Below are positions 10,225-18,763 of a stretch of DNA of 64,000 nt, one piece after another. Positions within the stretch are counted from its first letter, which is position 1. Every line of letters starts with the position of its first letter. The stretch lies in NCBI GenBank assembly GCA_942490855.1, contig CALNYS010000002.1:92341-156340 (forward strand), written 5' to 3'. The notes below the pieces were generated by a model. The model was not told the origin of the DNA and did not search any database. It was given only the letters and a program-made list of their open reading frames with translations. Made by a program: the position numbers and the translations under genes. Source of the DNA: an uncultured Phycisphaeraceae bacterium (GTDB lineage Bacteria; Planctomycetota; Phycisphaerae; Phycisphaerales; UBA1924).

Positions 10225-12177
10225 TCACCCGCCCGCGGCGAGCTTCCGCTTGACGACGTTCTCGCTGCCGCCGGCCGCGACGAGCTCCTGCGCCGCGGGG
10301 CCCAGCGCCGGGAACCGGAACGTGCGCTCGCCGAGGGTGATCTCCGAGTCCTCGAAGTTCACGACGAGCGTCTCGCCGGGGATCGTCAGCGCGTCCGAGC
10401 CGCCGTTCGCCTCGCGCAGCGCGGCGACGAGGTCGGGGCACACGATGCAGATGAACCCGTTGTTGAACGCGTTGCGGGTGTAGGTGGCGCTGAAGGTCTC
10501 GGCGATCACCAGCTGGATGCCGAAGCTCGCCAGCGCTGTCGCCGCCTGCTCGCGCGACGACCCAGACCCGAAGTTCGCGCCCCCGATAATGATGTCGCCC
10601 GACTGCGCGATCTGCTGGAACGAGGGGTCGTAGTTGAGCATGGCGTACTGGCCCTGCTGCTCGAGCGTGATGTCGTCGCGGTAGGTGACGTCCTTGCCGT
10701 AGATGCCGTCGGTGTTGAGGTTGTCCTGCGGGAGGAAGAGGGATCGCCCCTCCATGCGCGCCGGGAAGCCGTCGATGATGGTGGTCTTCCCCGCCGCCGC
10801 GGCCGGCCGCGGCTGGACGACGCACCCGCCTAGCGAGCCGTCGCCCTCGTCGAGCGCCATCGGGGAGGCGATGTGCCCGCGGATGGCGCTCTCGGCGACC
10901 ACGGCGGGGCTGGCGAGGTAGCACTGGGCGTCGCGGCTGCCCATGCGTCCTTTGAAGTTGCGGTTGGTGGCGCTGATGCCGACCTCGCCGGCTTCGAGCA
11001 GCCCGGTGCCGAGGCCGATGCAGGCGCCGCAGCCGGGCGGGAGGGCGCGGGCGCCGGCGTTGATCAGCACGTCCCAGTCGCCGCTGGCCTTGGCCTTGGC
11101 CTCGACCTCGCTCGACGCGGCGGCGACGTAGAAGTCCACGCCCGTCGCGACGCGTCGCCCGCCGTCTTTGGAGAACACGCGTGCGGCCGCGGCGAAGTCG
11201 GACTCGCGGGCGTTGACGCAGCTCATGAGGTACGCCTTGTTGATGCGCACGTTGCGGGCTTCCATGTCGGACACGCTGGTCATGTCCTTGACGGTGTCGG
11301 GCCCGCTGACGTGGGGCGCGACCTTGGAGAGGTCGAGCGTCAGCTCCTTGGCGTAGTAGGCGTCCTTGTCGGGAGCCCACTCGGCGCGCGCTTCCCACCA
11401 CTCGTTGACGTCCTCGGCGGTGTAGCGGGGTTCGTCGCGGGCGCTGAAGACCGCGGCGCGTTCGAGGAGGAACGCGAGGAGCGTCTCGTCGAAGGGGAAC
11501 ATGCCCGCGAGGGCGCCCCACTCGGTGGTCATGTTGGAGATGGTCAGTCGCTCGTCCATGCTGAGCGTCGCGACGCCGGGGCCGACGAACTCGATGACGC
11601 AGTTGAGCACCTCGTCGTTATTGAAGTGCCCGCACAGGGCGATGATGACGTCCTTGCCCACGGCGCCTTCGCGCAGCTCGCCGGTGAGGGTGACCTTCAC
11701 GACGTCGGGCACCTGCCACCACGTTTCGCCGGTGGCCCAGATGGCGGCGGCGTCGGTGCGCACGACGGGGGTGCCCACGGCCGCGGCGGCGCCGTAGATG
11801 TTCGAGTGGGAATCGGACCCGACCACAAGGGAGCCGGGGGTGACGTAGCCCTCTTCGATCATGACCTGGTGGGCGATGCCGCGCCCGGGCGGGTAGTAGT
11901 CGATCCCGTTGTCGCGGGCGAACTTCTCGATCTTGGCGTACTTGCCGAGGTTCTCGGGGGTGGTGTTCTGGATGTCGTGGTCCATGCCGAAGACGGGCTG
12001 CTTCGGGTCGCGGACTTTGGTCGCGCCGATGGACTGAAACTTGGGGATGACCGCGCCGGTGTTGTCGTGGGTCATCACGTGCTTGGGGCGGATGGCGACG
12101 ATGTCGCCGGAGCGGACGTCGCCGGTGGAACCCACGGCGTAGCGCTGGACGATCTTTTCGATGGAGGTCTGGGGCAT
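10225..12177 (-). CDS. Aconitase-family hydratase with fused large and small subunit domains (homoaconitase / 3-isopropylmalate dehydratase-like)
   Basis: The ATG at 12177 gives MPQTSIEKIVQRY.... Motifs present: VMTHDNTG, GSDSHS, CGACIGLG, ATNRNFKGRMG. A C-terminal swivel (LeuD-like) domain lies in the same ORF. Confidence 0.85.
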   Translation of the reverse strand: MPQTSIEKIVQRYAVGSTGDVRSGDIVAIRPKHVMTHDNTGAVIPKFQSIGATKVRDPKQPVFGMDHDIQNTTPENLGKYAKIEKFARDNGIDYYPPGRGIAHQVMIEEGYVTPGSLVVGSDSHSNIYGAAAAVGTPVVRTDAAAIWATGETWWQVPDVVKVTLTGELREGAVGKDVIIALCGHFNNDEVLNCVIEFVGPGVATLSMDERLTISNMTTEWGALAGMFPFDETLLAFLLERAAVFSARDEPRYTAEDVNEWWEARAEWAPDKDAYYAKELTLDLSKVAPHVSGPDTVKDMTSVSDMEARNVRINKAYLMSCVNARESDFAAAARVFSKDGGRRVATGVDFYVAAASSEVEAKAKASGDWDVLINAGARALPPGCGACIGLGTGLLEAGEVGISATNRNFKGRMGSRDAQCYLASPAVVAESAIRGHIASPMALDEGDGSLGGCVVQPRPAAAAGKTTIIDGFPARMEGRSLFLPQDNLNTDGIYGKDVTYRDDITLEQQGQYAMLNYDPSFQQIAQSGDIIIGGANFGSGSSREQAATALASFGIQLVIAETFSATYTRNAFNNGFICIVCPDLVAALREANGGSDALTIPGETLVVNFEDSEITLGERTFRFPALGPAAQELVAAGGSENVVKRKLAAGG

Positions 12178-12267
12178 GCGAGCAGCGTAGCGGGTCCGGC
12201 CCTTTTCTCCCACGCCACCAGCGCGGGGATACGGGGAACAGCACGGACGCGTGCGCTGTTCAATAGG

Positions 12268-12752: not shown

Positions 12753-13756
12753 GCGGAGTCGCCGGGATTGCTCAGCCAGAGTTTCCAGAGTGACTGGAAC
12801 TTCTTGCTCTTGACCCCGCGGGAAAACTGCAGCGTCGCGGTCCCCTGCGGGCCTACGAGTCTCGCGTTGACGAGCTGCAACTTGTTGCGACCGGCGCGCC
12901 TCGCGGTCAGGTAGATACACGCGTCGCCACGGCGCCATTCTGCGCCGAGCGCCTCGCGGACTCGCCCGGCTTGAAGCCTGTAGGGCCACGCGCCAGCGGT
13001 CATCATCCCAAGCAGCAAAGCCGAGATGGCGATGAGTGCGACCCAGCCGTACGCCCCAGAGACGGAACTCTGGACATCCCAGGTGTACGAGGTTGCGTAG
13101 TCGAAGAGCTCGATCGCTACGAGCAGGAGGACGCTCAAGGCTATCGCTCCCAAGAAGTACGGTATGAGAAAGAACAGCAGCGAGTCACGCTGACCGAACA
13201 TCTGTCGGCGGGGTTCGTTCATTGGCTCCCGTGCGGTCTCTATCGCCTCCCTGAGCGCTTTGGGTGCGTAGACATCAAACCCGCCGGCCCCGCAACGATC
13301 GAGCATGGCGCAGGTCTCTGCCCACGCCTGCTCGCTCTCGGCTCGCTGGACAGCGGCACGGCGAAAACAAAACACGGGGCCACGCAGCGAGAGATAGATC
13401 GCATCAAAGAGCGTTTCGCGCTCGAGCGATTTCGATCTCTTCACGTGTCGCCGCTCCGCGATGAGAATCGGCCCGAACATGGTCCCACAGAGCCCGACGG
13501 TGAGGGGCAACGAGAACCAGAGGGGCAGGGGTCCGGATGGTCGCCCATATAGGACCGCGACCGGGACCGCGATCAACAGGAAGACGATGAGTGGCCCGGC
13601 GTAGAAAACGAACGCACGGGCGCCGGAGATCGTTGGCGTCGGCGGCTCCGGTAGGTCGCTCTCGTCCCACCAGTACACGCGCCCGTTGCTCTTTGGTGCG
13701 GGGGTATTCAGCCGTGCGCCCTCAGCTCTTCTTCCCGAGGTACTTCGCGATATCAA
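12749..13756 (-). CDS. Hypothetical four-TM membrane protein with relaxed codon bias
   Basis: 335-aa ORF beginning at a TTG that overlaps the upstream HD-like gene by 35 nt. An alternative GTG start at 13678 is possible. Two pairs of TM helices plus soluble segments. Third-codon positions are less GC-biased than in neighbouring genes. Confidence 0.55.
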   Translation of the reverse strand: MISRSTSGRRAEGARLNTPAPKSNGRVYWWDESDLPEPPTPTISGARAFVFYAGPLIVFLLIAVPVAVLYGRPSGPLPLWFSLPLTVGLCGTMFGPILIAERRHVKRSKSLERETLFDAIYLSLRGPVFCFRRAAVQRAESEQAWAETCAMLDRCGAGGFDVYAPKALREAIETAREPMNEPRRQMFGQRDSLLFFLIPYFLGAIALSVLLLVAIELFDYATSYTWDVQSSVSGAYGWVALIAISALLLGMMTAGAWPYRLQAGRVREALGAEWRRGDACIYLTARRAGRNKLQLVNARLVGPQGTATLQFSRGVKSKKFQSLWKLWLSNPGDSA

Positions 13757-14291
13757 AGTCCACGAAGTCGGCGTGGTGGAAGATGATGGACTCGATGGAG
13801 CGCTGGACTTTGTCGCCCTCGTGGGAGTGGGTGGCGACGATGTGCATCACTTCGGGGGGGATGCCGTGCTTGTAGCACATGGCGACGCCGGAGAAGGGGT
13901 GGCGGAGCATGTCGCCGTAGTGGCCCTTGACGAGTTTGCCGTCGACCTTGTCGAACTCGAGGGGCTTTCCGACGTCGGCGAGGAGGGAGCCGGCGAGGAG
14001 GTGGTCGCGGTTGATGGGGATGCGGTCGGCGAAGATCTTGGTGAGGACGTCGGCGATCGCCATGCACTGCTGGGCGCAGGAGCGGAGGTGCTCGATGTAG
14101 CGGAGGTCGATGTCGCCGGCGAGGAGGGTGAAGGGGACGGCGCGGAGCTCGTCGAAGGTCCAGCCCTTGCCGCCGGCTCCGGTGGTGAGGGCTTCGGACC
14201 AGACGGCGGCGACGTTGTCGCGCAGCTGGGCGTCCTGGATGTCCATCACTTCGGGCAGGAGCTCGGCGATCTGTTCGGTCGTGAAACTCAT
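13722..14291 (-). CDS. Divergent HD-superfamily-like protein
   Basis: 189 aa. It contains His/Asp-rich motifs (YIEHLRS, LLADVGKP, ATHSHEGD, FHHADFVDF). Where canonical HD proteins read HD.GK, this protein reads ADVGK. Confidence 0.55.
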   Translation of the reverse strand: MSFTTEQIAELLPEVMDIQDAQLRDNVAAVWSEALTTGAGGKGWTFDELRAVPFTLLAGDIDLRYIEHLRSCAQQCMAIADVLTKIFADRIPINRDHLLAGSLLADVGKPLEFDKVDGKLVKGHYGDMLRHPFSGVAMCYKHGIPPEVMHIVATHSHEGDKVQRSIESIIFHHADFVDFDIAKYLGKKS

Positions 14292-14312: not shown

Positions 14313-14858
14313 CTAGCTGTTTTGCTCGACCCACTCGCGGCGGAGAAGGCCGTAGTAGACGTCGTCTTCGTACTGGCCCCACTTCAGGGCCTGCTCACGC
14401 AGCACGCCCTCGCGGGTGAAGCCTAGCTTTTCGAGGATGTGCGCGGAGCGTTCGTTGCGGGCCCAGCAGGTCGCGTAGACGCGGTGGAGCCCGACGCTCT
14501 CGAAGGCGAAGCGGAGGAGCTCGGTCGCGGCTTCGAAGGCGAAGCCGTGCCCGCGGTGGTCCTTGCCCACGATGTACCCGATGTCGCCGATGTTGTGGGT
14601 GGGGTCGCGGTTGAGCATGACGTCGCCGACGATGGCGCTGGTGTCTTTGCGGACGAGGAGGAAGGCGTACTTCTTCTCTTCGTCGGCGTCGGCGCCGGTC
14701 TTGGTCACCCACTCCCGCGCCTTTTCGAGCGTGTAGGGGCTCGGGATGCCGTAGCCGCCCCAGGAGGACTCGGGGTCGTCGCAGAAGGCGACGATGGCCT
14801 CGGCGTCGTCGAGGGTCGGGGTGCGCATGAGGAGGCGCTGGGTGTGGAGTTCGATCAT
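14313..14858 (-). CDS. GNAT family N-acetyltransferase (RimJ/RimL-like)
   Basis: The ATG at 14858 gives MIELHTQRLLMRTPTLDDAEAIVAF.... It contains the motif GYIVGKDHRGHGFAFEA. A 4-nt ATGA overlap joins it to the upstream GNAT gene. Confidence 0.85.
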   Translation of the reverse strand: MIELHTQRLLMRTPTLDDAEAIVAFCDDPESSWGGYGIPSPYTLEKAREWVTKTGADADEEKKYAFLLVRKDTSAIVGDVMLNRDPTHNIGDIGYIVGKDHRGHGFAFEAATELLRFAFESVGLHRVYATCWARNERSAHILEKLGFTREGVLREQALKWGQYEDDVYYGLLRREWVEQNS

Positions 14859-15409
14859 CGCTGGATCCCCGCGGCCCATTCGTCGCGCGTGAGTGTGAAG
14901 CCCTCGGCGTCGAAGAACTCGCCGTCTTTTTCGCATTGGTTAGGCAGGACGCCGACGGAGCGCATGCCGATCTTCTCAAGTACGCGAGACGAGGCGGGGT
15001 TTCGCGTCATCGCGTGTGCGCAGAGTTCGGCGAACCCGAGCGTCGCGAAGCCGTAGGCGAGCAGGGCGCTGCAGGCTTCGGTCGCGTAGCCCCTCCCCCA
15101 CCACGGGCGCCCGACGACGTAGCCGAACTCGGCCTCGTCGCGCCCCTTGATGTTGAGGAAGCCGATCGATCCGATGAGCGTGCTCGTTTCGCTGAGATCG
15201 ATGAGGAGGGTCAGCGCGTCGCCGGCGGCGCGGAGGCGTTCGAAACGCGCGATTGCTTCGGCGGCGTCCGCTTCGGTGTAGGGGTAAGGGATTGAGCGGG
15301 TGAAGGCGGCGATGTCGCGGTCGGAGAAGACGGCGGGCATCGCGGGGATGTCCGCCTCGCTCGGGGCGCGGAGGACGAGGCGCTCGGTCTCGAGTCGGGG
15401 GAGGTTCAT
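14855..15409 (-). CDS. GNAT family N-acetyltransferase (RimJ/RimL-like)
   Basis: The ATG at 15409 gives MNLPRLETERLVLRAPSEADIPAM.... It contains the motif GYVVGRPWWGRGYATEA. A 4-nt overlap joins it to the lyase-like gene upstream. Confidence 0.85.
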   Translation of the reverse strand: MNLPRLETERLVLRAPSEADIPAMPAVFSDRDIAAFTRSIPYPYTEADAAEAIARFERLRAAGDALTLLIDLSETSTLIGSIGFLNIKGRDEAEFGYVVGRPWWGRGYATEACSALLAYGFATLGFAELCAHAMTRNPASSRVLEKIGMRSVGVLPNQCEKDGEFFDAEGFTLTRDEWAAGIQR

Positions 15410-16170
15410 TGGTTGAGCGTGCGGTCGGCGGGGCCGTCGTACTCGTGGGCGCCGGGGATGACGCGGCGCATGGGCTTCATGCGTTCGCGTTCTTCGGTGG
15501 CGTGGGCGACGAGGCCGGGGACGCGGGCGATCATGAAGAGGCCGTTCATGACGGAGGGGTCGAAGCCGAGGTCGGCGAGGATGGCGCCGATCGCGCCGTC
15601 GACGTTGATGGGCAGGGCCTTGCCGCTGGCGGCGAATGCGGATTCGACGGCGCGGGCGGCGGCGACGTGGGGGCCGGTCGCGCCGGCTTCCTCGGCGAGC
15701 TCGAACAAGCGCGCCGTGCGCGGGTCGGCGGTGTGGATGCGGTGCCCGAAGCCGCTCATGCGTTCGCCGCGGGTTTTCATGTCGGCGAGCTCGGCGTTGG
15801 CGGCCTCGCTGAGGTCGCCGCCGCGGGCGATGATCGCGCCGAGCTGGCGGGCGCACTTCTCGATGGCGCCGCCGTGGAAGTTGTTGATGGAGAGGATGCC
15901 GGCGCTGACGGCCTGGGAGAGCGAGGCGCCGGTGGAGGCCACGGTGCGGGCGGAGAGGACGCTGGGGGGCGTGGCGCCGTGGTCGATGCTGGAGACGACG
16001 ATGGCGTCCATCAGCTTGCCGACAGGTTCGCTGGGCATTTCACCGCGGAGGATGAGGTAGACGGCGGCGCCGAAGGAGACGCGTCCCATGAGGTCGGCGA
16101 TGTCGTAGCCGCGGACGCGGACCTCGTTGGGTCGGATGTTGGTGATGGCGGTGGGCCAGGTGTCGGGCAT
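15406..16170 (-). CDS. Short citrate-synthase-fold protein, citryl-CoA lyase-like
   Basis: 254 aa and lacks the large N-terminal citrate synthase domain. It contains the citrate synthase family signature MSGFGHRIHTADPR and later the catalytic-region motif ARVPGLVAH. Confidence 0.75.
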   Translation of the reverse strand: MPDTWPTAITNIRPNEVRVRGYDIADLMGRVSFGAAVYLILRGEMPSEPVGKLMDAIVVSSIDHGATPPSVLSARTVASTGASLSQAVSAGILSINNFHGGAIEKCARQLGAIIARGGDLSEAANAELADMKTRGERMSGFGHRIHTADPRTARLFELAEEAGATGPHVAAARAVESAFAASGKALPINVDGAIGAILADLGFDPSVMNGLFMIARVPGLVAHATEERERMKPMRRVIPGAHEYDGPADRTLNQ

Positions 16171-16286: not shown

Positions 16287-17204
16287 TTAGGCCTTGGCTC
16301 CGATGGTTTCGAGGACGGCGGCGGGGAGGTCGCCGAAGGAATCGACGACGGTTGCGCCGGCTTTCGTGAGCGCTTCGACCTTGCCGGCGTGGGTTCCGGT
16401 GTTGCCCTCGATGATCGCGCCGGCGTGGCTGAAGCGGGTGCCTTCTTTGGCGACCTTGCCGCCGATGTAGGCGACGACGGGCTTGGTGACGCGCCCGGCC
16501 TGCATCAGCTCGGCGAGGTCTTCTTCCTGGGAGCCGCCGATCTCGCCGAAGATCGTGATGACTTCGGTGTCGGGGTCGTCTTGGAATCGCAGGGCGATGT
16601 CGGGGATGCGCAGCCCGAGGACGGAGTCGCCGCCGACGTGGCAGAGGGTGGAGAGGCCGACGCCCTGCCGGCAGAGGTAGTAGCCGCAGGAGCTGGTCAT
16701 GCCGCCCGAGCGGGAGATGATGCCGACGCTGCCGGGGGTGAACCACTCGCGGGCGCTGGCGGCTTTCCCGCCGATCATGCCCATGACGGCTTTGCCGGGC
16801 GAGAGCACGCCGAGGGTGTTGGGGCCGATGAATTCGGCGCCGTGCGTGTTAGCAGCCTTGGCGATCGCCATGGCGTCCCAGACGGGGACGCGGTCGGGGA
16901 CGAGGAGCAGGAGCTTGACGCCGGCCTCGATGGCTTCGATCGCGGCGTGCTTGATGAGGCGCGCGGGGACGAAGAGGACGGAGATGTCTACGGGCCCGGC
17001 GTGCTCGGCGTTGGAGTGGGCCATCGCCTCGGAGACGTGGTCCCAGACGGGGAGGCCTTCGACCTCCTGCCCGCCCTTGCCAGGGGTGCAGCCGCCGATG
17101 ATGCGGGTGCCGAACTCGCGCATGAGTCGTGTGCGGGCGCGCCCTTCGCGCCCGGTGATGCCCTGGACGATGACGCGTTTGGTTTCGTCGATGAGAATCG
17201 CCAT
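16287..17204 (-). CDS. Succinyl-CoA synthetase alpha-like CoA-ligase subunit (citryl-CoA synthetase small-subunit-like)
   Basis: The ATG at 17204 gives MAILIDETKRVIVQGITGREG.... Motifs present: SRSGGMT and the phosphohistidine loop FSHAGAI. The start overlaps the stop of the upstream gene (TGATG). Confidence 0.85.
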   Translation of the reverse strand: MAILIDETKRVIVQGITGREGRARTRLMREFGTRIIGGCTPGKGGQEVEGLPVWDHVSEAMAHSNAEHAGPVDISVLFVPARLIKHAAIEAIEAGVKLLLLVPDRVPVWDAMAIAKAANTHGAEFIGPNTLGVLSPGKAVMGMIGGKAASAREWFTPGSVGIISRSGGMTSSCGYYLCRQGVGLSTLCHVGGDSVLGLRIPDIALRFQDDPDTEVITIFGEIGGSQEEDLAELMQAGRVTKPVVAYIGGKVAKEGTRFSHAGAIIEGNTGTHAGKVEALTKAGATVVDSFGDLPAAVLETIGAKA

Positions 17205-18763
17205 CAGGCCGCCTCCTCGCTGACGGCGAGCTCGTTCTCGAGCCCGTCGATGGGGATGTCTACGAAGACCGCGGGGACGCCGGCGCGGATGCATTCGACC
17301 TCGAGGGCGATCCAGTCGGAGTCGCGCTTGGTCGCGTCATCGGGGTCGATGCCGAGGGTCAGGCGCTCGTCCTGGACGCGGAGGAGATCGCCGGCGAGTT
17401 TCAGGACGGTTTGGGTTTGCCCGGCGTCGAGGTTGGCGGCGTCGATCCAGACCTCGCCGGTCCAGTCGTCGCCCAGGGCGACGTCGCAGAGCTTCACGCC
17501 GTCGCCGTCGACGAACGCGGGGACGATGCGGTCCGTGGGTTCCCACACGCTGCCGGCGGCGGCGTCAACGAGTTCGGTGAAGCGCTGGCCGATGGCGCGG
17601 GGCGGGTCGTCTTTCTTGTAGCCCTCGACGGGCGCGGGGAGGTCTTTGCAGGCGTCCTGGAGGATCTCGACGGCGCGGTCCTCGCTGTTCCCGCCGAGGC
17701 GGATGAGGGCGGGGACGGAGAGGTGCAGCTCGTTGAAGGCCTTGGCGAGCCCGTAGGCGGACCAGTACTGCTCCTGGCTGGCGACGCCCGAGCCCGAGCC
17801 GAAGTACCCGACGAGGCCGGGCTGGCTGAGGATGATGCGGGCGGCGGCGTAGACCTTCGCAGCGCTGGGGTTGCCCGAGGTGTCGGTGAAGTTGGCGGGG
17901 GTGAACCCGGCTTGTGAGACGGCGTCCATGCTCATCATGGAGCCGCCGCCGCCGGCGCCGTGGAAGCCGATGACCTTTTCGCCCGTCTCGCCGGTGCGCG
18001 GGAGGACGGCGAAGTAGAACGTGCCGCGGTGGTCGCGCTGCTCGAGGTCGTAGGCGATCTCTTCGAGGCGCGTGGGCGGGTGGTCGAGCTCGCGGGCGAT
18101 GCGGATGCCCAGCTCGGGGTGACGGAAGACGGCGTAGTCGTCGATGGTCACGCGGCAGTCGGCGGCGAGGACGCGCCCGTCGGTGGTGGTGACGAGCGGG
18201 TTGACCTCCATCGAGCGGGCTTCGACCTCGCGCGCGGTCGTGGCGATCTGCTGGATCGCTTCGGCGACGGCGGCGCGGAGGGATTCGGCGATGGGCGAGG
18301 ACGCCATGAGGGCCGTGAGCGCCGCGGCGTCGATGCCGGTCTCGCTGTCGACGGGGAGGCGGTGGACGGAGTCGGCGCGGTCTTCGATGCCCGAGCCGCC
18401 GCCGAAGGCGACGAGCATGACGGGGGCGCGCTCGCCGTCGTCGATGGTCTGGCTGACGAAGATCTCTTCGGCGATGTCGATCTTCTCTTCGACGAGGACG
18501 GTCTCGACGGGGAAGGCGCCGACGCTCATCCCGAGCAGGCGCGACGCGTGCTCGCGGGCCTGCTCCGGGGTGTCGGCGAACGCGACGCCGCCGAGCGCGG
18601 CGCGTCCGGTGGTCCAGGCCTGGATCTTGAGAACGACGGGGCCGCCGATCTCGGCAGCCGCGGCGTACGCCATGTCGGCGCTCCCGGCGACGGCGCCTCT
18701 GGGCACCGCCAGCCCGCGCTCGCGGAGGAGCTTCTTGCCCTCGTGTTCGTGCAGTCTCGCCAC
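17204..18763 (-). CDS. ATP-grasp succinyl-CoA synthetase beta-like subunit with a C-terminal extension of about 130 aa (citryl-CoA synthetase large-subunit-like)
   Basis: Proposed GTG start at 18763, preceded by GGAGAGGAGA, giving (M)ARLHEHEGKKLLRERGLAVPRG, which matches the canonical SucC N-terminus (M.LHEYQ.K). The ORF is 519 aa, compared with roughly 390 aa for typical SucC. Confidence 0.8.
   Translation of the reverse strand: MARLHEHEGKKLLRERGLAVPRGAVAGSADMAYAAAAEIGGPVVLKIQAWTTGRAALGGVAFADTPEQAREHASRLLGMSVGAFPVETVLVEEKIDIAEEIFVSQTIDDGERAPVMLVAFGGGSGIEDRADSVHRLPVDSETGIDAAALTALMASSPIAESLRAAVAEAIQQIATTAREVEARSMEVNPLVTTTDGRVLAADCRVTIDDYAVFRHPELGIRIARELDHPPTRLEEIAYDLEQRDHRGTFYFAVLPRTGETGEKVIGFHGAGGGGSMMSMDAVSQAGFTPANFTDTSGNPSAAKVYAAARIILSQPGLVGYFGSGSGVASQEQYWSAYGLAKAFNELHLSVPALIRLGGNSEDRAVEILQDACKDLPAPVEGYKKDDPPRAIGQRFTELVDAAAGSVWEPTDRIVPAFVDGDGVKLCDVALGDDWTGEVWIDAANLDAGQTQTVLKLAGDLLRVQDERLTLGIDPDDATKRDSDWIALEVECIRAGVPAVFVDIPIDGLENELAVSEEAA

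Follow-up and report, generated by a model that had tools for sequence, protein, structure and literature searches.

The locus described here raises the question of what the end of a CoA-ligase subunit consists of, and why it has been kept. The DNA analysed, referred to below as the window, is a stretch of 64,000 nucleotides from contig CALNYS010000002.1 of an uncultured Phycisphaeraceae bacterium. The gene in question (17204–18763 on the minus strand, to which all window coordinates below refer) encodes a CcsA-like protein, that is, a large or beta-type subunit of the citryl-CoA synthetase kind, which is 519 amino acids (aa) long, starts with GTG and stops with TGA. An initial annotation had remarked on an extension of about 130 aa at the end of this ligase subunit and had suggested a docking or regulatory domain. 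From the evidence presented here, we consider it likely that this tail is what remains of a ferredoxin-type domain, now without its clusters and kept by selection as a structural or docking element independent of them.

A folded extension beyond the catalytic body

The gene itself is unremarkable in its signals. Its GTG start at 18763 is preceded by a Shine-Dalgarno sequence (GGAGAGGAG) with a spacer of 6 nucleotides, and neither a frameshift nor an internal stop is found within the 519-aa open reading frame (ORF). The TGA stop at 17206–17204 is genuine and has one base in common with the ATG (17204–17202) of the alpha-subunit gene, giving a TGATG stop/start overlap (17202–17206) that points to translational coupling from beta to alpha. 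The extension thus ends exactly where the alpha subunit begins, as was first described. Residue numbers below are those of P0001 and begin at the second codon.

Residues 1–403 (17552–18763) form the catalytic body, an ATP-grasp plus CoA-ligase-like domain with a putative citrate-binding-type insert, as delimited by alignments with 3ufx_B and 6hxq_B. Pfam recognises ATP-grasp_2 in the beta protein (114 bits), with ATP-grasp_5 also matched, while Citrate_bind reaches 23.1 bits, below its cut-off of 26.8, as compared with 40–41 bits on the relatives in which the tail is a separate protein (the split form, see below). The 6hxq_B alignment passes through the insert. The best PDB sequence match is SucC of Thermus (3ufx_B, E 1.3e-49, residues 2–369), and the NCBIfam SucC models cover residues 26–395 of the long ORF with scores far under their equivalog cut-offs (NF001913, 203.8 versus 370 bits; TIGR01016, 180.1 versus 375.6 bits). 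The window protein shares the ATP-grasp and CoA-ligase domains of SucC and departs from it both in this low score (204 against 370 bits) and in a tail that SucC does not have. CcsA of Hydrogenobacter thermophilus (6hxq_B, 429 aa), which goes with CcsB and the citryl-CoA lyase Ccl and is, to our knowledge, the only characterised citryl-CoA synthetase large subunit, has the same type of body, probably down to the citrate-binding-type insert, at about 27% identity. It aligns to residues 3–403, and the family profile extends the alignment to residues 4–417, nearly the whole length of CcsA. When the full-length model is used as a Foldseek query, the matches are confined to the bodies of SucC, CcsA and ACLY, covering about 400–440 columns.

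What is left over comprises residues ~404–518 (17207–17551), about 115 residues without counterpart in SucC or CcsA. The extension is real, and it is slightly shorter than the 130 aa originally proposed, because the first 15–30 or so residues of that range correspond to the CcsA-type tail. That typical SucC and CcsA proteins lack a counterpart holds true, with alignments stopping at residues 369–395 for SucC and at 403 for CcsA. Nor is the tail a common feature of ordinary SucC: the genome encodes a separate, tailless SucC of 403 aa that matches only residues 2–~390, and the ordinary SucC proteins of four other carrier genomes match only the same part of the query, so that in all five genomes the likeness ends at about residue 390. 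Two full-length citrate synthases are also encoded in the genome.

The extension is conserved throughout its family. A search with the catalytic body returned more than 120 close homologues, every one of them 490–585 aa long, and the 114 that were aligned (490–533 aa) all conserve the tail, with column identities of 0.5–0.77 and several near-invariant positions. In a collection of species-representative genomes, at least 513 encode a relative; the best 80 relatives all cover residues 1 to ~509, and it is to the loci of these best 80 that all counts out of 80 refer. A tblastn search with the tail alone found it in 77 of them. A word-indexed homologue search with residues 395–518 retrieved only 4 proteins, too low a count for the family given that the tail diverges more rapidly than the core. 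One homologue from the same class (G578:C78:18660-20192) carries a single in-frame TGA inside the match, which could reflect pseudogenisation, an error of sequencing or recoding.

Three parts can be distinguished in the tail. The first is a conserved linker specific to the clade (residues 404–419; 17504–17551), with the consensus W-x-P-R-x-R-R-V-P-x-F-V-G, in which P414 is invariant; CcsA stops where this linker begins and has no domain corresponding to what follows. The second, delimited by profile alignment with hhalign, a table of ligand positions and an AlphaFold2 model, is the putative relic of a ferredoxin-like domain for two [4Fe-4S] clusters (residues 420–508; 17237–17503). The last is a poorly conserved C-terminal helix or tail (residues 509–518; 17207–17236), modelled with a predicted local distance difference test (pLDDT) score of 56–75. 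AlphaFold2 orders the elements of the tail as a beta-hairpin, a helix, a second beta-hairpin, two helices, a strand and the weak terminal helix. Confidence is high both in the full-length model (tail pLDDT 94–98) and for the domain core modelled alone (91–98). For the linker it is 94–96 in the full-length model versus 81–91 in the isolated-domain model, and this gain in the full-length context is in line with the linker packing against the body. Five extra residues, L-G-D-D-W (residues 429–433; 17474–17488), are inserted into the first hairpin of the domain in the window protein, a rare feature found in about 6% of clade members (e.g. L001, L003, L004).

Relationship to an eight-cysteine module

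The likely origin of the domain emerges through intermediates. A2, a profile built on the tails of 77 proteins from the species loci, was searched against 1.84 billion representative proteins, and in addition to fragments of the window protein's own family it recovered two kinds of relatives: full-length proteins of ~470–525 aa with the same body and an eight-cysteine tail, and stand-alone proteins of ~90–100 aa with the same eight cysteines. In these eight-Cys relatives the spacing is C-x2-C-x4-C-x3-C and C-x2-C-x2-C-x3-C. When A2 was aligned by hhalign with A3, a profile of 15 of the stand-alone proteins, the two matched over 91 columns with a probability of 99.2% and an E-value of 1.5e-19. 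On this sequence evidence the homology of the window tail with the eight-Cys module is strong.

A second step connects the module with known ferredoxins. A3 matches two-cluster ferredoxin domains in PDB, namely the polyferredoxin FwdF (5t5i_F, E 3.4e-4), the Fe-S subunit of a 2-oxoglutarate:acceptor oxidoreductase (8ys5_D, E 3e-3) and HycB4. Individual eight-Cys members give weak matches to several Pfam Fer4 families, with Fer4_7 on P0218 at the cut-off; a full-length eight-Cys profile did no better against PDB in linking the module to ferredoxins, reaching only NdhI at E 0.6. As judged from these E-values the relationship to bona fide ferredoxins is moderate, and it is backed by a textbook motif; for the window tail itself, the connection with ferredoxins is indirect yet significant. 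Like the bacterial two-cluster ferredoxins (FwdF, 8ys5_D, Fer4_7/Fer4_9), the eight-Cys relatives show the characteristic cysteine spacing and the sharing of ligands between clusters (positions I–III with VIII, and IV with V–VII), and a beta-strand ending in x-I-D precedes motif 1. The domain of the window protein differs from such ferredoxins in its missing ligands (see below), in about 30 residues, a hairpin and a helix, between the motifs, and in the family-specific signatures E-x-x-A-C-E and L-P-I-x-G-L. The order of elements modelled in the window tail (hairpin, helix, hairpin, helices, strand) is compatible with the (beta-alpha-beta)2 ferredoxin fold.

The eight-Cys module takes the same place after a CcsA-like body as the domain in the window protein, whether it is fused (as in P0225 and P0254) or separate. 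In the split metagenomic loci L090 and L092, a beta subunit of 417–429 aa is followed by a ferredoxin-like gene of 92–98 aa and then by the alpha subunit. A domain that is fused in some lineages and encoded by a tiny intervening gene in others is a classic sign of a physically associated subunit. The eight-Cys ligases are uncharacterised proteins of other phyla, and the source names on them include Acidobacteriota, Zixibacteria and Riflebacteria. In L092, the gene following alpha (L092:3180-4079) encodes an HpcH/CitE-family lyase (191 bits) in place of the citrate-synthase-fold lyase, giving the ligase and ferredoxin-like unit a lyase partner that is not homologous to the latter.

To place these forms relative to each other, we use a maximum-likelihood tree of the catalytic body alone, with 235 family proteins (233 fused and 2 split-form) and the genome's own SucC as root. 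The 119 fully degenerate proteins, including that of the window, make up one clade on a long stem (support 0.89), which is nested within the eight-Cys lineages; the node that joins it with its eight-Cys sister group has support 1.0, and the split-form beta subunits fall outside. The root is not secure because the outgroup branch is long, though the nesting is independent of it.

Loss of the cluster ligands and retention of the domain

The three groups were aligned at the eight ligand positions, and residues were counted in 77 sequences of the window type. Position I is divided between Cys (34) and Trp (35), position II is Cys in none of them, position III is occupied by Val or Ile, and position IV is mostly Ser (52) or Ala (16). 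At position V, which is Cys in the eight-Cys relatives, 76 members have Asp; position VI holds Leu, Phe or Met, and Cys is found at position VII in 61 members and at position VIII in 70. Each clade member keeps between none and four of the eight cysteines, as compared with all eight in the fused and stand-alone relatives. The cysteines that remain stem from different ancestral clusters. From position I to VIII the window protein reads L, G, V, A, D, W, L, C, having lost seven of the eight ligands: Cys490 (17291–17293) at position VIII is the only ancestral ligand that is still Cys, and Asp480 (17321–17323) stands at position V. As the ligands have been replaced, the domain should no longer be able to hold [4Fe-4S] clusters, and on sequence grounds we predict that it binds none. 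Several of the former ligand positions now carry Trp or another hydrophobic or small residue, as would fit cavities that have been filled. An internal control is provided by a set of intermediates (P0362-P0366), in which exactly positions I, II, III and VIII are lost and IV–VII are kept, the pattern to be expected when a two-cluster ferredoxin loses one of its clusters as a whole.

The rate of evolution of the domain differs between the groups, without the degenerate form being free of constraint. The ratio of domain to core identity is about 1.0 in the eight-Cys lineages, where the module evolves as slowly as the core, as opposed to about 0.68 in the degenerate clade, where the pace of the domain, measured against that of the core, is about 1.5 times higher. 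Constraint is thus relaxed but clearly still present. All three groups have in common a set of non-cysteine residues (G435, D440, L460, L469, A485, E487, G494 and the L-P-I-x-G-L motif); their being shared is not accounted for by cluster binding, and they may form the face with which the domain touches the ligase.

These patterns suggest the following scenario. The ancestor of this ligase branch would have had a dedicated small module for two [4Fe-4S] clusters, encoded by a gene of about 98 aa between beta and alpha or carried by beta as a C-terminal fusion, and its clusters plausibly added redox or oxygen control. In the lineage of the window the ligands were replaced: position I by Trp in about half of the members, with Cys mostly kept in the rest, positions II, III and VI mostly by small or hydrophobic residues, position V by Asp and position IV by Ser or Ala. 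Its signature residues other than cysteine and its place in the protein were retained, as apparently was the fold, and the enzyme would have given up any sensitivity to redox state or oxygen that it owed to the clusters. Today the domain would most probably serve as a structural or docking element within the beta/alpha ligase complex, and it could possibly also engage the lyase or the HDIG partner. Docking or regulation, the role first proposed, is still the most plausible present-day function; what went unrecognised at the time was the homology with ferredoxins, so that the original interpretation is partly supported.

Could the domain instead still bind a metal, or an unusual cluster, and serve as a redox or metal sensor? 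Candidate ligands would be Asp480, Ser481, Glu487, Glu489 and Cys490, together with the cysteines at positions I and VII in many members. Several of these sites are strongly conserved (Asp at V in 76/77, Ser481 in 96%, Glu489 in 100% and Cys490 in 91%), Asp is also present at position V in two stand-alone proteins of the eight-Cys type, and Asp-ligated clusters occur in some ferredoxins. However, the retained cysteines derive from two ancestral clusters (I and VIII versus VII), so that no cluster keeps more than two of them, and the window protein itself has Leu at both I and VII; the mostly small or hydrophobic residues at II, III and VI and the Trp at I in about half of the members suggest, moreover, that the cavities are filled. 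We regard metal binding as improbable for these reasons, and give no more credit to the idea that the tail is a decaying remnant without function that is merely tolerated. Decay would be in line with evolution faster than that of the core (the ratio of 0.68) and with the changes in the window copy at shared positions (F425C, G465E, P467L, E482D and C486L), but it is at odds with a length kept in 119 proteins at 55–88% core identity, with the persistence of near-invariant positions, with a confident AlphaFold2 fold and with the finding of no truncated members among the complete genes.

Several results weigh against a vestigial ferredoxin-type domain. The tail alone finds no match in PDB with phmmer (best E 1.2), nor in Pfam or NCBIfam, and Foldseek with the isolated domain model returns nothing better than E 0.7 from PDB, so that the ferredoxin fold is assigned from sequence profiles by way of the intermediates and from the succession of secondary-structure elements, with no structural match behind it. 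The docking role in particular is inferred. The lack of a Foldseek ferredoxin match or a direct Pfam match would also suit a new and unrelated docking domain whose likeness to the eight-Cys module is convergent or spurious. This we consider very unlikely in view of the hhalign E-value of 1.5e-19 over 91 columns, the occurrence of both forms at the same position on orthologues in the same operon, and the nesting of the clade in eight-Cys lineages. For an artefact of assembly or annotation, with the true stop further upstream, no supporting evidence was found, and it can safely be set aside given that the same architecture recurs in more than 100 independent assemblies and that the stop overlaps the start of the next gene.

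Ecological considerations give a mixed picture. Loss of oxygen-labile clusters is compatible with the three heme-copper oxidase loci of the genome and with the finding of no POR-family gene in its assembly, which is 92% complete. However, POR-family genes are present in three other genomes with the degenerate form, and cluster loss follows no simple marker of lifestyle. This is a further point against the proposed history and weakens the ecological argument. A link between cluster loss and an aerobic lifestyle was therefore not upheld: the genome of the window fits it, the POR-family genes of the other carriers do not, and the inference is weak.

Operon partners, distribution and significance

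The partners expected of a CcsA-type ligase are present in the operon, whose SucD-like alpha subunit and short citrate-synthase-fold lyase add to the likeness with the Hydrogenobacter system. The SucD/CcsB-like alpha subunit (305 aa; 16287–17204) follows the beta gene in 70 of the 80 loci. It is succeeded by a short citryl-CoA-lyase-like protein of the citrate-synthase fold (254 aa; 15406–16170; NF004869, 260.9 bits against a cut-off of 212), which is found in 60/80. A further conserved member is an HDIG-domain protein (13722–14291; 47/80 loci), with full-length matches at 64–84% identity; it is also 42% identical (E 4e-59) to a 177-aa protein of an eight-Cys locus (L088:10301-10834). Two tandem genes for GNAT acetyltransferases (14313–15400) lie between the lyase and HDIG genes. 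GNAT genes occur in just 21 of the 80 loci, usually in one copy, and this rarity makes them look like a lineage-specific insertion instead of core parts of the operon. The GNATs had been put forward as possible docking partners of the extension, which is unlikely considering that they are present in 21/80 loci versus 77/80 for the domain.

The operons of the eight-Cys ligases are alike in including alpha, lyase, HDIG and homoaconitase-type hydratase genes, with a dehydrogenase also counted. In two eight-Cys genomes, the beta–ferredoxin fusion, alpha, lyase, the 177-aa protein and an aconitase-family hydratase of ~645 aa follow one another in this order; an isocitrate-dehydrogenase-family gene ends one of these operons and, in the other, lies immediately upstream on the opposite strand. 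This dehydrogenase is nearest to enzymes of the homoisocitrate/isopropylmalate type, with scores below their cut-offs. The aconitase-family hydratase of the window (10225–12213, ~650 aa) passes the homoaconitase equivalog TIGR00139 with 727.6 bits, and its counterpart in the eight-Cys operon (L088:10909-12843) does so with 755.4 bits, the cut-off being 529.9 in both cases. The acid substrate of the ligase and lyase may therefore be homocitrate rather than citrate. The term “citryl-CoA synthetase-like” is accordingly used here in the sense of fold and operon logic, with homocitrate as a live alternative suggested by these matches, and the question of substrate leaves the reading of the tail unaffected.

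The tail is universal within its paralogue and rare among genomes of the class. Searched with the full-length query, 200 genomes sampled from the class to which the window belongs yielded the family in only 2 cases; it was detected in none of the 9 other genomes of its taxonomic family and in none of 400 sampled from the phylum, and a positive control on known carriers recovered it. A sample of the class drawn around a named Phycisphaeraceae carrier gave the same set of genomes, which places the window's genome in that class. A search of 401 phylum genomes with the A2 profile found the domain only in the window's own genome, a result that, with about 11 candidates scored per genome, is not evidence of absence. 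Such a patchy operon suggests lateral transfer or repeated loss; its GC content is not atypical.

Our literature search found no description of a ferredoxin-like domain on proteins of the citryl-CoA synthetase type, in either its eight-Cys or its Cys-depleted form. Current annotations of these proteins read “succinyl-CoA synthetase beta”, “acetate--CoA ligase family” or “ATP-grasp domain protein”, and leave the last ~100 residues without a called domain. CoA ligases of the succinyl- and citryl-CoA synthetase type catalyse no redox step, and the presence of an iron-sulfur module dedicated to an entire branch of them therefore calls for an explanation. That the module has been kept, folded and fused in the same place without its clusters suggests that at least part of its function is cluster-independent. 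One tentative extension of this idea, which we find conceivable though on balance doubtful, is that the module is an obligatory third component of the entire citryl-/homocitryl-CoA-synthetase-like ligase branch, with a core job that is mechanical, for instance to hold or gate the contact between beta and alpha or to dock the lyase, and that the clusters are a redox or oxygen switch which was later lost. In any case, the eight-Cys and Cys-less orthologues form a ready pair for learning what the clusters add, e.g. oxygen or redox control at the citrate/homocitrate node. If the mechanical role is true, the cluster-less clade would be, in a central-metabolism enzyme without redox chemistry, a natural “cysteine-free mutant”, separating the structural function of the module from its redox function.

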